From a virus: a stretch of DNA of 64,000 nucleotides. Below, in pieces: positions 24,364 to 27,174 of the stretch. The stretch's first letter is position 1. Every line of letters starts with the position of its first letter. Under the pieces are notes generated by a model. That model did no database searches, had not been told where the DNA came from, and worked only from the letters and a program-made list of their open reading frames with translations. The translations under genes were made by a program, and so were the position numbers. Where the stretch lies: the IMG/VR virus record IMGVR_UViG_3300033066_000693, positions 1 to 64,000 of that record, one strand, 5' to 3'.

Positions 24364-24438
24364 GCTCTCGTAGTCTCAACTGGTAGAGCGCAGGATTCTA
24401 AATCCTTGAGGTTGCGGGTTCGAGTCCCGCCGAGAGCA
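24364..24438 (+). tRNA. tRNA with anticodon CUA (putative amber suppressor; Trp-tRNA-like body)
   Basis: 7-bp acceptor GCTCTCG/CGAGAGC, T-arm GCGGG-TTCGAGT-CCCGC, anticodon loop TT-CTA-AA on a 4-bp stem AGGA/TCCT; D-arm AGTCTCAACTGGTAGAGC has one bulged U. Confidence 0.55.
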
Positions 24439-24440
24439 TT

Positions 24441-24806
24441 ATGGCTGAAACAGCAGAACAAATTCTTGATCGTCTGAAGAAGGCGAAGCTGGTCTTCATC
24501 TCTACGCCCTACACGAAACCTGACGTAGGCACGAATATCCATCGCGCCGTAAAGGTTTTCAATCAACTCCTTGATGAAGGCAAGTGCGTCCCAATGTGCA
24601 TGTTGTGGACGCACTTCTTTCACTGCATTCACAACCGGAGCTACGAGGATTGGCTTGCATACTGCATGATCCATATCCCTCTCTGTGACGCTCTGCTGGT
24701 TCTGCCGGGAGAGAGTTCTGGTGTCGAGAGAGAAGTCGAGATCGCTAAGGCTCTCGGTATTCCTGTTTTCTATGACATCGAATCTCTCAACAAGTGGCTT
24801 GCATGA
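24441..24806 (+). CDS. hypothetical protein (possible nucleoside deoxyribosyltransferase-like fold)
   Basis: 121 aa; weak resemblance only. Confidence 0.4.
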   Translation: MAETAEQILDRLKKAKLVFISTPYTKPDVGTNIHRAVKVFNQLLDEGKCVPMCMLWTHFFHCIHNRSYEDWLAYCMIHIPLCDALLVLPGESSGVEREVEIAKALGIPVFYDIESLNKWLA

Positions 24807-25255
24807 AATTCGACTATAAAAGTCCATGTTCTGCTTGCCCCTTTCGCACTAACTCGCTGAAAGGTTGGCTTGGTAACTATACGCCAGAAGGTGTTATTGT
24901 TGCTATTCAGCATGACCAGCCATTTTTCTGTCATAAGCATGTAGAAGAAACCATTGGCTATGACGATCCAGAATGGCGAGAGAAGGCACTAGAGGACGCT
25001 CAGCATTGCGCTGGCGCTCTTATCTTTGCTAACAAGCTTTGTAAGCTCAGTCGTATTCCTGAGGTTGCGGCTGCGCAGCGAAACGTTGATAAGGACCAGA
25101 AGATTTTGTTTCCGCCTTCGGAGTTTGTGAAGCACCATACGCTTACAATAGAGAGGGCTGAACCTAAGCCCATCAAAGGCCCCAAGAATGGAAAGAGTAG
25201 TAGAAGTCGAAGTAGTCCAGTTTCTAAGACCAAACGGAAGAAAACGTCATTGTAG
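24794..25255 (+). CDS. hypothetical protein with basic C-terminal tail
   Basis: 153 aa. Confidence 0.4.
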   Translation: MACMKFDYKSPCSACPFRTNSLKGWLGNYTPEGVIVAIQHDQPFFCHKHVEETIGYDDPEWREKALEDAQHCAGALIFANKLCKLSRIPEVAAAQRNVDKDQKILFPPSEFVKHHTLTIERAEPKPIKGPKNGKSSRSRSSPVSKTKRKKTSL

Positions 25256-25502
25256 AGTAGTTCTTCCTGAGTCTGTTCAACAAGGTTATGATCTCGTCCG
25301 CAAGAATGGCTGTAGGCTTACTGCGGAAGAGTTAGAGAACCGCCTTATCTCATTGACTATCGAAGAGCCAAAACTAGGCGATTTCTCGGCAGTCATAGTA
25401 GAGAATGGACCGAAGGTTCCCGAGTCGCTTGTTGAAATGCTCGTGAAGTTCAATGAGCAAGCATTTGAGAAGTGGAAAAATGCAGCCGAAAGAACCGCCT
25501 AA
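25188..25502 (+). CDS. hypothetical protein
   Basis: 104 aa. Confidence 0.3.
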   Translation: MERVVEVEVVQFLRPNGRKRHCRVVLPESVQQGYDLVRKNGCRLTAEELENRLISLTIEEPKLGDFSAVIVENGPKVPESLVEMLVKFNEQAFEKWKNAAERTA

Positions 25503-25616
25503 AGAAACACCAAAAGTCGATCCTCCTAAGATCTCAAAAGAACCCCGTTTCATTTTCAAGAAGTACAAACCAAAGAAATCCTTTGGCTCCACCACAGACG
25601 ACCGCCGATAAGGGCT

Positions 25617-26558
25617 TTGACCATGAACAACATTAGAGATATCCGAGCAATCTGGTTCAAGAACCATGTTGCTAAGATCCAAAGCTTTGACGATGACAAC
25701 TTGATACGGATCAATTGGCGTCATAGCGATGGCAATTCCAACTATGCTGTTCTCTATATCATTGATCGCCGTACTGCAACGTTGTTTGTATCAGGCGATC
25801 TTGGGCAAGCCGTGTATCGCTGGGGCGGAGATATCGGGATTAATTTCATTGCAGGTTGCGATATCGGCTACTTCAATGAAAAGTGCTGCGCAAGCTCCTG
25901 CGGGGAACGGGGCAAGACTTGGAGCGAAGAAGTCGCCGTCAACTACGTCAAGCAATGGGCAAAGGACAACATTGAAGGTTTAGACGACAAAAACCTGCCC
26001 GAGTATATGTATGACGACGGGATGTGCGAAGAACTGTCGCTCAAAACCGAGGCTCCTGAACTTGTCAAGTATTTTGAAGACCAAGATGCTTACAAGCATT
26101 GGAAAGAATTGAGTGACGAAGAGCGGGCGCTTTACACGGTTGCATGTAAGAAATACATAGAATCTCCTGCTGTAGAGAGGCTTTCCAAAAATCACTACAT
26201 CTCAGAGCATCTCGCAGCTAAGAAGAAGTACGACGAGCTTATGCCAGAAGCTATTCGTCGTTGCTGGTCAGAACACGATTGGCACGAGTATCTTCGAGAG
26301 GACGGGTACAAGTTCTTTGGAGACGGATATTATGAGTGTGGAGACATTGGCGAAACCATCTCCATTCGCATTGAGGCTCATCTCATTGGCATGAAGATGA
26401 TTCGGGACGGGATCAAGGAAGGTAAGTTCCAGATCGAAAAACCTGCCCATGTCGCTCCTCCTGCTCCTCAAATTCAGGCACCAAAGTCCCGTTGGCGGCG
26501 GTTGTGGGAGGGCTTTATTGGCGATTGGGAACCGCAAAAAGTTCCACAAAAATCGTGA
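25617..26558 (+). CDS. hypothetical protein
   Basis: 313 aa. Confidence 0.45.
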   Translation: MTMNNIRDIRAIWFKNHVAKIQSFDDDNLIRINWRHSDGNSNYAVLYIIDRRTATLFVSGDLGQAVYRWGGDIGINFIAGCDIGYFNEKCCASSCGERGKTWSEEVAVNYVKQWAKDNIEGLDDKNLPEYMYDDGMCEELSLKTEAPELVKYFEDQDAYKHWKELSDEERALYTVACKKYIESPAVERLSKNHYISEHLAAKKKYDELMPEAIRRCWSEHDWHEYLREDGYKFFGDGYYECGDIGETISIRIEAHLIGMKMIRDGIKEGKFQIEKPAHVAPPAPQIQAPKSRWRRLWEGFIGDWEPQKVPQKS

Positions 26559-26567
26559 CGAAAAAGC

Positions 26568-26595
26568 TTGACAGCGGAGGAATGGACGATATACT
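26568..26595 (+). promoter_or_regulatory. sigma70-like promoter TTGACA-n16-TATACT
   Basis: predicted start about 26602 coincides with the 5' arm of the long helix. Confidence 0.45.
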
Positions 26596-26601
26596 TGCAG
26601 T

Positions 26602-26762
26602 AGTAGCAGTTTGAAAAGTTCTGGTTTGAGGTTCGTATAAACTCCCCGTAAGGCTTGGCAGCCCGGGTCCGTAAAGGGAGTAGGGTGTAAAAGTACACCG
26701 TCTAGCGCAGGACGGAAGTTGGCTCCCAACCTGCTCTGACCAGAACCTTTCAAACTGCTACT
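26602..26762 (+). ncRNA. structured RNA element: 24-bp terminal helix (one C.A mismatch) enclosing about 113 nt with internal hairpins (GGTGTA-AAAG-TACACC, GTTGG-CTC-CCAAC)
   Basis: 26602-26625 pairs with 26739-26762; followed by ACCTTTT, then the RBS and ATG of the PTH2-like gene. Confidence 0.45.
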
Positions 26763-26784
26763 CAACCTTTTAGGAGATTTCACC

Positions 26785-27174
26785 ATGCTGTAGACTGAAG
26801 ACTCAACCCATTACGTTTACTGTCTCGTTCGGGAAGACCTTTCCCCTGTTTCTCAAATCGCAGTCCAAGCCTGTCACGCCTGTATTGAGGCGATTAGAGC
26901 GTTTGCTCCGGGTTAGGACCAGCAACATCCACATCTAGTTCTTATTGGTGTCAAGGACGAAGCTGCGCTCCTTAAGGCTTTCGAGCGCCTTCAACACTTT
27001 GGCGTGCGGGTCACCAAGTTCCAAGAACCCGACCGAAACAACGAAATAACTGCAATCGCTACCGAGCCGATCCCTCAGGATTCAGAGCATCGGCGGTTGT
27101 TCCGTAACTATCAGCTTTTGAAGCTTGATAACAATATCGGTACGACTAAGAAGATCAGCGGGGGTGTCCCATGA
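26785..27174 (+). CDS. peptidyl-tRNA hydrolase PTH2-family protein with two in-frame UAG codons (codons 3 and 44)
   Basis: RBS TAGGAGATTT-n4-ATG; VREDL...IAVQACHA ... HLVLIGVKDEAALL ... EITAIATEPIP match the PTH2 fold; TAG at 26791 and 26914. Confidence 0.5.

Follow-up and report, generated by a model that had tools for sequence, protein, structure and literature searches.

Judging from its nucleotide sequence, the PTH2-like open reading frame at 26785-27174 of the 64,000-nt stretch of viral DNA analyzed here (the window) is very probably a functional gene, with nonsense suppression as the gate to its translation, and this gated gene and the gene of a tRNA that reads UAG behave as a linked cassette. 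The features on which this reading is built are the following:

24364..24438, + strand: suppressor tRNA gene, anticodon CUA, reads UAG (ARAGORN, Rfam, sequence)
26568..26595, + strand: putative sigma-70-like promoter, TTGACA, 16 nt, TATACT, 11/12 consensus positions (consensus scan)
26597..26763, + strand: conserved structured 5' leader RNA (MFE, RNAalifold, covariance model)
26772..26776, + strand: Shine-Dalgarno (SD) sequence AGGAG, 8 nt before the ATG (sequence)
26785..27174, + strand: PTH2-like ORF, 129 codons including two in-frame UAG, TGA end at 27172-27174
26791..26793, + strand: first in-frame UAG, codon 3, context AUG CUG UAG A (sequence)
26914..26916, + strand: second in-frame UAG, codon 44, PG-UAG-DQQHPH (sequence)

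The preliminary description of this DNA had reported a tRNA with a CUA anticodon in a loop reading UU-CUA-AA, and ARAGORN, Rfam and direct reading of the sequence all agree on it. ARAGORN finds the anticodon CTA at 24364-24438 (+), the Rfam tRNA model (RF00005) reaches 55 bits (gathering score 29), and the sequence, read directly, folds as a cloverleaf of type I, in which the acceptor stem has 7 bp and the variable loop 5 nt, the D loop contains GG, the T loop reads TTCGA and the discriminator is A, the CCA end not being encoded; the anticodon loop is TTCTAAA in DNA, with CTA at position 35. The gene ends 2 nt before the start of the next ORF. Loops of the form YU-NNA-AA occur in 91 of the 106 distinct suppressor tRNAs that neighbor homologues of the PTH2-like gene, and the closest relatives (L011-L015 and L092) carry a tRNA(CUA) at the equivalent site, 2.3-3.1 kb upstream of their PTH2-like gene. 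The Trp-tRNA-like identity suggested earlier had to be dropped: the similarity to Trp tRNAs is generic, the discriminator is A, that of bacterial tRNA(Trp) being G73, and the best matches in a pool of 239 neighboring phage tRNAs and E. coli tRNAs are of mixed isotypes. The architecture of tRNAPyl comprises a 3-nt variable loop, a 6-bp anticodon stem and neither GG nor T-Psi-C, within a system that includes pylSBCD; the present tRNA departs from it in having GG, TTCGA and a 5-nt variable loop, and Pfam or NCBIfam scans of about 40 window ORFs detected no Pyl-related gene. The label 'tRNA-Pyl' assigned by ARAGORN is a reflection of the anticodon only.

For the gated gene, a PTH2-family ORF with a strong ribosome binding site, an ATG and TAG at codons 3 and 44 had been proposed, and each of these elements was recovered: AGGAG, the ATG and both TAGs are in place, and the protein, with X at the TAGs, matches Pfam PF01981 (E=3.5e-7, 30.9 bits, cut-off 23) over residues 12-100, which correspond to profile positions 4-104 of 115, with the second TAG inside the matched span. 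From the first TAG to 27004 the frame holds no ATG, GTG or TTG. The ORF also matches PHROGs 1866 and 34073, the family profile matches the solved PTH2 chains 24bt_A (E=7e-7), 2zv3_A and 1rzw_A, and NCBIfam gave no match for the protein. The R.DL, Q..HA and T-A motifs are conserved in the family. The codon-44 UAG, previously placed between AQxxHA and KVVLKV-like segments, indeed falls where the sequence is variable, behind the conserved Q..HA motif and ahead of the HPHLVL strand, and the residue aligned with it, which had been suggested as a check, is Q, D, N or E in the homologues that have no second TAG. The lysine of the GK motif is catalytic in PTH2, and work on S. solfataricus Pth2 reportedly names as catalytic residues this Lys and the Asp of DAG.T. 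In the present family Gln aligns with the Lys of the canonical GK motif and an invariant Glu, in E-P-D, aligns with Asp; given the Gln at the position of that Lys, peptidyl-tRNA hydrolase activity is not assured.

An ORF interrupted in this way could also be a decaying PTH2 gene, in which two inactivating mutations coincide in type by chance. Genes of this sort count as broken in standard annotation (for the phages Arash and CBB it lists no more than C-terminal fragments), and in the homologue of L092 the C-terminal part diverges as if frameshifted. Inside the window's ORF, however, there is no frameshift and no in-frame TAA or TGA, the SD and the ATG are retained, and codons 4-43 and 45-115 give dN/dS values of 0.06-0.3, so far below 1 downstream of both TAGs that, by this measure, decay is excluded. 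The preliminary description had also argued against random decay, from the presence of two ambers rather than a mixture of stops. Moreover, a stop recurs at the same place in 89 clusters of homologues from three collections and its type tracks the anticodon of the tRNA; taken as a pseudogene, the ORF would be extremely improbable. What is found instead, an in-frame stop conserved among homologues and a downstream frame under purifying selection, is the pattern by which programmed readthrough is recognized. The context of the stop points the same way, 42 of 43 clusters having a purine as the following base, where the background is 62% (p=3e-8); a purine at this position is said, after work by Bossi and by Miller and Albertini, to favor suppression in E. 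coli. The early stop is codon 3 in 25 of these 43 clusters.

The comparison with homologues extends the evidence far past the preliminary description. The comparison set consisted of 186 related loci, grouped at 70% identity into 128 clusters that are not to be equated with phylogenetically independent events; a megablast search of 24000-28500 against phage records gave no match, the relatives being recognizable at the protein level only. An unambiguous early stop is present in 89 of the 128 clusters (73 TAG, 14 TGA and 2 TAA), in which the gene begins with ATG, a few codons and the stop, and no alternative start lies ahead of the conserved core. Suppressor tRNAs were searched for in flanks of up to 5 kb, within which 'no tRNA found' is uninformative; in the 55 clusters with one in the flank, stop and anticodon are paired as TAG-CUA (44), TGA-UCA (10) or TAA-UUA (1), with 0 mismatches. 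All neighboring suppressor tRNAs (88/88) lie on the strand of the gene, with about 0.8 kb as the median separation. An early stop is missing from the PTH2-like gene in about 25 clusters, 14 of which still adjoin a tRNA(CUA), so that the linkage extends beyond the gate.

The order ATG, 1-3 codons, TAG is shared by cultured and uncultured phages at 33-68% identity: Salmonella phage Arash begins 'ML[TAG]N', Acinetobacter ME3 'MT[TAG]I', Pectobacterium CBB 'MAQ[TAG]N' and LR756511 'MTH[TAG]V', and LR756501 has two TAGs. The HD-PTH2 fusion gene of XacN1 begins ATG-x-TAG. The early stop also occurs in IMG/VR, MAG and metagenome contigs; the homologues in two isolate chromosomes have neither an early stop nor a suppressor tRNA nearby. 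The second TAG occupies the identical position in L011-L015 and L092 and is found in the equivalent loop in L018, L025, L026, L069, L009, L170 and L176. Sense codons at both sites in homologous phages had been named beforehand as evidence that would speak against readthrough, and the opposite was observed, the stop being kept at the N-terminal position and the closest clade also carrying TAG at the second one. In a control scan of about 0.9 Mb for the pattern SD-ATG-1..4 codons-stop-long ORF, with no nearby start, 26 cases with TAG were obtained (22 PTH2 genes and 2 HD-domain partners among them) vs 9 with TGA and 4 with TAA.

The same 5' end could be interpreted as a tiny upstream ORF, an AUG-X-stop leader of 2-4 codons followed by suppressor-independent re-initiation at a downstream non-canonical codon or, in a variant of this explanation, a minigene that itself acts like the lambda bar minigene. 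An AUG, 1-3 codons and a stop behind a strong SD, here AGGAG-N8-AUG CUG UAG, is just how bar-type minigenes are built. These have genetic interactions with Pth and become toxic in cells short of Pth; peptidyl-tRNA drop-off is favored on very short ORFs, and its product is the substrate of Pth. Some lineages have ATT or GTG, both able to initiate, directly behind the stop. Nevertheless, the codon at this place varies (ACT, AAC, GTT, ATT, AAT, GAC, GGT and others) and usually is no start. The lambda bar minigenes, unlike the present gene, have no in-frame conserved ORF behind them and need no suppressor tRNA. Since a tiny ORF predicts neither the perfect match of stop and anticodon nor a second in-frame TAG at codon 44, we regard this explanation as very improbable. 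Minigenes and peptidyl-tRNA drop-off are mentioned in PMC4929431.

Gating by suppression also has to be distinguished from a change of the code itself. The preliminary description had favored gene-specific programmed readthrough over genome-wide recoding, many genes ending in TAG and reading normally under the standard code, and both statements stand. With the standard code, ORF coverage of the 64-kb window is about 90-93%; TAG is the terminator of 21 of 87 + strand ORFs (about 24%), and the PTH2-like gene is the only TAG-interrupted gene, a scan of the unassigned window stretches having revealed no other such ORF. To this lone interruption are added the conserved stops, the covariation of stop and anticodon and the dN/dS values. 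In-frame TAG in many genes and poor coverage, the marks of a genome-wide code 15, are not seen in the 64 kb to which this statement applies. It could be supposed that TAG is a sense codon in genome blocks outside the window (code 15), the TAGs of the PTH2-like gene being ordinary recoded codons: the window is part of a genome of probably several hundred kb, its relatives are huge phages of the LR7565xx set, L036, L122 and a few others carry two early TAGs, and mixed-code phages are known (10.1101/2021.08.26.457843; 10.1101/2022.06.29.495998). However, the other window genes are free of TAG, and the flanks of the related loci read well in the standard code, with TAG as a normal stop; counting TAG as a sense codon raises their coverage no further than counting TGA as one does. 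The annotations of Arash, ME3 and CBB use code 11 and show apparently no other fragmentation in the inspected stretches, and recoding leaves the codon 2-5 position of the stop in most lineages unexplained. Such wider recoding is therefore improbable.

An efficient suppressor would extend many phage proteins, because TAG ends about 24% of the window ORFs; backup stops behind the TAG-terminated genes are not enriched (Mann-Whitney p=0.39), from which it can be argued that suppression is low or temporally limited. Four same-frame ORF pairs split by TAG alone (2357/3071, 10598/11144, 29484/30147 and 41530/42043) were considered as readthrough fusions and rejected, being separate genes, each with its own start. 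An NAD-ligase-like gene, TnpB, PARP-WGR and a HisRS-like core are among the genes of these pairs.

Upstream of the gated gene, the putative promoter has related promoter-like blocks before the PTH2-like gene in L011, L012, L015 and L092, and most homologues have an SD-like motif ahead of the ATG. The leader RNA between them has four hairpins closed by a stem of about 26 bp and contains the invariant motifs UCGUAUAAAC, GUAGGGUGUAAAAGUAC and GGAAGUUGGCUCCCAACC; its MFE is -79 kcal/mol (z = -4.4), and an RNAalifold consensus of 3 sequences has 57 pairs, with compensatory double changes at 18. By covariance model it is found upstream of the PTH2-like gene only, in L011, L015, L092 and L093; it is absent from L012-L014, and the search of 91 sources returned none beyond the window's own clade. 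Rfam contains no match to the leader and detects no Y RNA, at gathering and E-value thresholds. A role of the leader as Y RNA partner to the Ro60 gene of the window finds no support, as there is no bulged Ro-binding helix and no Rfam match, and the stem sequence is not conserved in L015.

In the mechanism that we propose, ribosomes would initiate at the SD-ATG, make fMet-Leu and reach the UAG at codon 3. Where release factor 1 won, only the dipeptide would be made; where the tRNA(CUA) from 24364-24438 won, elongation would proceed to a second contest at codon 44 and, because two UAGs are present, the hydrolase output would follow roughly the square of the suppression efficiency. The gate sites, in an N-terminal tail before the conserved core and in a variable loop, would tolerate any inserted amino acid, and the price of a failed attempt would be a very short peptide only. 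The hydrolase is presumably needed to the extent that the suppressor is active: it might remove the peptidyl-tRNA and stalled-ribosome by-products of readthrough or, alternatively, act on the suppressor tRNA itself, and the gate would hold it off until the phage tRNA has been made and charged.

A more ambitious and rather unlikely interpretation is that tRNA and hydrolase form a self-contained, horizontally mobile 'suppression homeostat'. In such a device hydrolase synthesis would, through the in-frame stop, report suppressor activity directly, and the PTH2 variant with Gln for the GK-motif Lys would act on the acylated or peptidyl form of the suppressor or, as another target, on the stalled-ribosome products of readthrough, by which standard-code phages could keep the level of a nonsense suppressor under control. 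The conserved leader RNA of the window's clade would contribute a further regulatory or ncRNA layer. If true, this would reveal the natural targets, long sought, of the suppressor tRNAs that standard-code jumbo phages carry.

Gating by a phage suppressor tRNA has partial parallels in several known systems. As in recoded phages, a phage tRNA (CUA, UCA or UUA) would decode in-frame stops in a standard-code host. Recoded phages (Lak, crAss-like and others) use code 15, TAG to Gln, or code 4, TGA to Trp, and their tRNA dependence has been proposed to time gene expression (10.1101/2021.08.26.457843, PMC9523058, PMC13037316). In those phages recoded stops are numerous in many genes, mostly late, structural or lysis genes, and the standard stop has been given up, whereas here one small gene, with an HD-domain partner in some lineages, has one or two stops whose N-terminal position is fixed, the gene adjoins the tRNA, and the codon otherwise serves these genomes as a normal terminator. 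The release factor 2 gene, prfB, is autoregulated via an in-frame UGA and +1 frameshifting, which senses RF2. As in prfB, a termination-related factor would be set by competition at an early in-frame stop, with the mRNA as decoding sensor; unlike prfB, the escape would go through a dedicated suppressor tRNA with no frameshift site, and the product is an enzyme, not a release factor. A dedicated tRNA reads the stop in specific genes also in pyrrolysine (UAG) and selenocysteine (UGA) insertion, but here the cloverleaf is canonical, no pyl genes or SECIS-like requirement were seen, and all three stop types occur across lineages, matching ordinary-looking tRNAs. A further parallel is offered by the synthetic 'leak dampener' feed-forward circuits, in which a target gene with amber codons is switched on only by a co-regulated amber suppressor tRNA and several ambers sharpen the threshold (PMC7969014). 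Those circuits are engineered, whereas the present one would be natural and widely conserved, with an enzyme of tRNA-recycling type as output.

In the literature, no description of an early-stop gene paired with a suppressor tRNA was found. The words 'suppressor' and 'stop codon' are absent from the survey of jumbo-phage PTH2 by Iyer et al. (2021; PMC7824862), and the XacN1 authors sought targets of the tRNA(CUA) genes, found none and stated that the targets were unknown (PMC5852040). Suppressor tRNAs are common in standard-code large phages and their purpose had been an open question, for which the PTH2-like gene, in some lineages with the HD-domain partner, offers a concrete conserved target under a simple rule, ATG and a few codons followed by a stop that matches the neighboring tRNA, which holds for all three stops. 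This would be a natural tRNA-gated translational control of the kind that synthetic biologists built independently; it links nonsense suppression, in a testable way, to peptidyl-tRNA recycling or ribosome rescue, and the gated pair may be a minimal first step toward full stop-codon reassignment in phages. The gated genes are systematically mis-annotated as fragments or missed (Arash, CBB, RAS14, XacN1), and the carriers include growable phages with Salmonella, Acinetobacter, Pectobacterium, Xanthomonas and Stenotrophomonas hosts.

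The pairing of a tRNA(CUA) with a PTH2-family gene carrying two in-frame UAG codons, reported in the preliminary description, is confirmed at 24364-27174, and the relatives of this locus widen its interpretation considerably: the sequences support a programmed readthrough of stop codons in the PTH2-like gene, which would depend on a suppressor tRNA. The gene (26785-27174) is preceded by the expected Shine-Dalgarno (SD) sequence, AGGAG at 26772-26776, followed after 8 nt by the ATG at 26785, CTG and TAG. The two in-frame TAGs are found at 26791-26793 and 26914-26916, and the frame stops at a TGA (27172-27174), with no in-frame ATG, GTG or TTG between the first TAG and 27004. 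The 129-residue product, with X at both TAGs, passes the Pfam threshold for PTH2 (PF01981, 30.9 bits vs 23, E=3.5e-7) in a match that covers residues 12-100 and therefore spans the second TAG, and a profile of 11 family members matches solved PTH2 structures (24bt_A, E=7e-7; also 2zv3_A and 1rzw_A). In the alignments the family keeps the motifs R.DL, Q..HA and T-A, while the canonical lysine of 'GK' aligns with Gln and the aspartate of DAG with an invariant Glu of E-P-D. The GK lysine and the DAG aspartate are reportedly catalytic, according to work on Pth2 of S. solfataricus, and on account of these replacements we call the predicted product a divergent PTH2-family protein and a putative hydrolase.

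The tRNA at 24364-24438 (+) was called with anticodon CTA by ARAGORN, the sole tRNA caller used throughout, and scores 55 bits in the Rfam tRNA model, against a gathering score of 29. By direct reading it is a type-I cloverleaf with a 7-bp acceptor stem, GG in the D loop, TTCGA in the T loop, a 5-nt variable loop, the anticodon loop UU-CUA-AA and discriminator A; CCA is not encoded. Its supposed likeness to tRNA-Trp did not hold, being generic: the nearest sequences in a pool of 239 tRNAs are of mixed isotypes. The ARAGORN label 'tRNA-Pyl' mirrors the anticodon only.

The window has no nucleotide match to deposited phages; its proteins link it with huge phages from the LR7565xx set. When PTH2-like homologues were translated from DNA, the early stop, a few codons after the ATG, was found to be conserved. 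Examples (an asterisk marking the stop) are LR756511 ('MTH*VETPYLYCFVRKDL'), Acinetobacter phage ME3 ('MT*IHENKKHTYVFVRRDI', lying 0.5 kb downstream of a tRNA whose annotation gives 'anticodon CTA'), Pectobacterium phage CBB ('MAQ*NEKTW...') and Salmonella phage Arash (AGGA..ATG CTG TAG AAC, 'ML*NKHWIYTFVRYDL'). The Arash record (OQ632216.1; locus L003, 1986-2318 and 3304-3378) holds the PTH2-like gene only as a 50-aa C-terminal fragment, gp84c, and the neighbouring tRNA, with anticodon CTA by ARAGORN, is deposited as tRNA-Phe; in CBB (locus L007, ~1480-1815) the gene is likewise present only as a C-terminal fragment, CBB_406. The deposited annotations of both genes and of the Arash tRNA thus appear to be wrong.

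Loci were gathered from IMG/VR (80), genome and MAG contigs (11) and metagenome contigs (80); the total analysed from DNA was 186 loci, forming 128 clusters at 70% identity. An early stop was considered unambiguous when an ATG was followed by at most 8 more sense codons and the stop (the ATG lying at most 9 codons before it), with no ATG, GTG or TTG ahead of the conserved Y.Y..VR.DL core. Such a stop is present in 89 of the 128 clusters (73 TAG, 14 TGA and 2 TAA). Two homologues from isolate chromosomes, of Achromobacter and Paraburkholderia, have neither an early stop nor a nearby suppressor tRNA. As a control, this early-stop pattern was counted over ~0.9 Mb of the loci, which gave 26 cases with TAG (22 in PTH2 genes, 2 in an HD-domain gene), 9 with TGA and 4 with TAA.

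If the PTH2-like gene were a pseudogene, homologous phages might have been expected to carry sense codons at both TAG sites; the opposite was found, as the early stop is kept and both stops are present in the relatives nearest to the window, L011-L015 and L092 (62-68% identity; 'MT*V...', 'PG*DQEHPH'). LR756501 also has two TAGs, as in the window, and a TAG occurs in the same loop in the more distant L018, L025, L026, L069, L009, L170 and L176; where it is missing, the residue at this site is Q, D, N or E. Moreover, Nei-Gojobori dN/dS, computed for all pairs of the window, L011, L012 and L015, ranges from 0.06 to 0.3 both between the TAGs (codons 4-43) and past the second one (codons 45-115), which excludes a pseudogene and bears out the original view that the gene has not decayed at random. 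In L092 (a 494-kb contig, gene at ~11320-11700), which keeps both TAGs, the C-terminal third diverges in a frameshift-like manner past 'KFQEPD'; either an error in sequencing or genuine decay of one lineage may account for it.

The identity of the stop is matched by that of the neighbouring tRNA. In the 55 early-stop clusters with a suppressor tRNA in the flank (≤5 kb), the pairs are 44 TAG-CUA, 10 TGA-UCA and 1 TAA-UUA, with no mismatch, and all 88 such tRNAs lie on the gene's own strand at a median distance of ~0.8 kb. By our own arithmetic, this diagonal 3x3 table has a probability of ~1e-12 if the clusters are independent, which they are not fully, kinship being uncorrected. Among loci with other stops, L035 reads AAGGAG..ATG AAG TGA GTT, with a tRNA-UCA 0.3 kb upstream, and L095 reads AAGGAG..ATG CAT TAA. 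The anticodon loop is YU-NNA-AA in 91 of 106 distinct neighbouring suppressor tRNAs, nearly all of them type-I molecules of 69-79 nt. As read from sequence, the PTH2-like gene needs the decoding of its in-frame stops, and evolution has held the stop in step with the tRNA next to it. In ~14 clusters a tRNA(CUA) adjoins an ungated PTH2-like gene, one without the early stop, which suggests that the link between tRNA and PTH2 is functional beyond regulation. Extra suppressor tRNAs (UUA or UCA) stand beside the PTH2-like gene at L074:5505-5593, L068:10132-10210 and L064:7586-7657, so that some phages have two kinds of nonsense suppressor; one such UUA tRNA, of 89 nt, has a long variable arm.

Among the 43 clusters formed at 60% identity, the early stop occupies codon 3 in 25, and A or G directly follows it in 42, vs a background of 62% at codon first positions (p=3e-8, clusters uncorrected for kinship). 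A 3' purine is reported, by Bossi and by Miller and Albertini, to favour amber suppression in E. coli.

Window-wide recoding, the alternative to a gene-specific event, was rejected. As originally stated, the window reads normally in the standard code: a greedy ORF model, heuristic like all those used here, covers 90-93% of the 64 kb, nearly all on the + strand, and TAG is the terminator of 21 of 87 + strand ORFs. A search of the window for an SD and ATG followed by a few codons, a stop and a long ORF returned the PTH2 gene alone, the single TAG-interrupted gene, and scanning of the unassigned gaps revealed no further TAG-interrupted ORFs. There is no excess of backup stops following TAG in the window. 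In the flanks of the related loci the standard code reads about as well as in the window, and the gain in coverage with TAG as sense is no greater than with TGA as sense. Four same-frame ORF pairs of the window split by TAG, including NAD-ligase-like, TnpB, PARP-WGR and HisRS-like core genes, were considered as readthrough fusions and dismissed, being separate genes each with its own start. Gene-specific readthrough dependent on the phage tRNA, as proposed at the outset, is thus supported over recoding by the standard-code window, the conservation of the early stop, the match between stop and anticodon, and the low dN/dS.

The region between the tRNA and the gene contains two further elements:

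26568-26595, + strand, putative near-consensus sigma-70-type promoter
26597-26763, + strand, structured RNA of 167 nt, following this promoter and preceding the SD that serves the PTH2-like gene

The leader RNA has a closing stem of ~26 bp, four hairpins, and invariant loop and junction motifs, with compensatory changes in 18 of 57 pairs. It matches no Rfam family and is also found at L011:4803-4967, L015:4795-4956, L092:~11130-11300 and in L093, always directly upstream of the PTH2-like gene; in L012-L014 it is absent by a clean deletion. The closing stem would be a plausible RNase III substrate.

In the proposed mechanism, initiation would occur at the SD-ATG and fMet-Leu would be synthesised, after which release factor and phage aminoacyl-tRNA(CUA) would compete at the UAG. 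With two UAGs, output would vary approximately as the square of suppression efficiency, thereby creating a threshold. The gates would fall in a tail ahead of the conserved core and in a variable loop, where the inserted residue should not matter, and a failed attempt would cost a very short peptide only. As to why a PTH2-like enzyme is gated, the data are consistent with feed-forward dosing of a peptidyl-tRNA hydrolase to deal with what suppression leaves behind (ribosomes that read through into 3' ends or stall, and drop-off); with a delay or threshold switch, under which the enzyme would stay off as long as the phage tRNA is not yet mature and charged, as in a natural version of the synthetic circuit of PMC7969014; or with negative feedback, in which the enzyme would act on the suppressor tRNA itself.

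An HD-domain protein likewise starts with ATG, 1-3 codons and TAG, which points to a small gated regulon. In XacN1, Xoo-sp13 and RAS14, jumbo phages of Xanthomonas and Stenotrophomonas, the domain forms the N-terminal part of a fusion with PTH2, and the deposited start of these genes is a downstream GTG. The early TAG is found in the following HD-domain genes:

L002:2443 (RAS14), L004, L006 (XacN1 ORF364), L024, L033 and L080
L052:3489, a separate (unfused) HD-domain gene

A further candidate for this regulon is the ORF L019:6248-6661 ('MS[TAG]NPFSKW...'), which belongs to no Pfam family. It is located 0.4 kb downstream of a tRNA(CUA), which itself comes after the PTH2-like gene.

Jumbo phages broadly carry PTH2, for which a role in ribosome rescue has been proposed, with no mention of suppressors or stop codons (Iyer et al. 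2021, PMC7824862). In XacN1, which has two tRNA(CUA) genes, in-silico readthrough of 18 amber stops gave no target genes (PMC5852040); that study looked past C-terminal stops, whereas a PTH2-type target begins with a stop. The pairing is not discussed in the Arash paper. Work on phage recoding (10.1101/2021.08.26.457843; PMC9523058; PMC13037316) instead concerns genome- or block-wide reassignment, and 'peptidyl-tRNA hydrolase' does not occur in the first of these. In the full-text literature accessible without subscription, we found no description of an early-stop gene paired with a suppressor tRNA. The proposed readthrough is new in being specific to a gene, in having its gate at a fixed N-terminal position, in gating an enzyme related to translation, and in using a tight tRNA-gene cassette that would work for all three stop codons.

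The window is rich in genes for translation and counter-defence, Ro60/Rsr among them:

Genes and elements of the window (all + strand)
11144-12322, IS605-type TnpB (OrfB_IS605 and Cas12f-like TNB domain), mobile-element gene
14364-15260, weak intein-splicing-domain match, mobile-element gene
20626-23325, protein of 899 aa carrying the shoulder and repeat domains of major vault protein (PF11978, E=6e-30)
30147-31733, PARP catalytic and WGR protein, candidate counter-defence/metabolic
36934-37686, LAGLIDADG homing-endonuclease-like protein, mobile-element gene
42043-42795, HisRS-like core, 250 aa, without anticodon-binding domain
42797-43771, Clp_N and SpoT-type HD_4 hydrolase, candidate counter-defence/metabolic
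43829-44815, PRPP synthetase, candidate counter-defence/metabolic
47905-48244, cluster of four tRNA-Glu genes
48493-49356, GluRS/GluQRS-like catalytic core, 287 aa, directly after the tRNA-Glu genes
54645-56102, full-length LysRS, which exceeds the NCBIfam cut-off with 488 bits
56138-57712, nicotinamide phosphoribosyltransferase (NAMPT; NAD salvage), candidate counter-defence/metabolic
60219-61913, Ro60/Rsr orthologue with TROVE and vWA domains (NCBIfam Rsr, E=1e-141), with an intrinsic terminator after it

Rfam detects no Y RNA anywhere in the window. The only deposited-phage relatives of the vault-domain protein are in LR7565xx genomes of 460-735 kb. A tRNA-like element at 50174-50295 (+), with no ARAGORN call and a sub-threshold Rfam tRNA-Sec match (27.8 bits), combines an acceptor-like stem of 7 bp and a reduced D arm with the loop CUUCUAA and a variable arm that is long; after it comes a second T-arm-like hairpin (GAGAGTTCGAGTCTCTC). 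The element may be either a tRNA that has degenerated or an ncRNA that mimics one.
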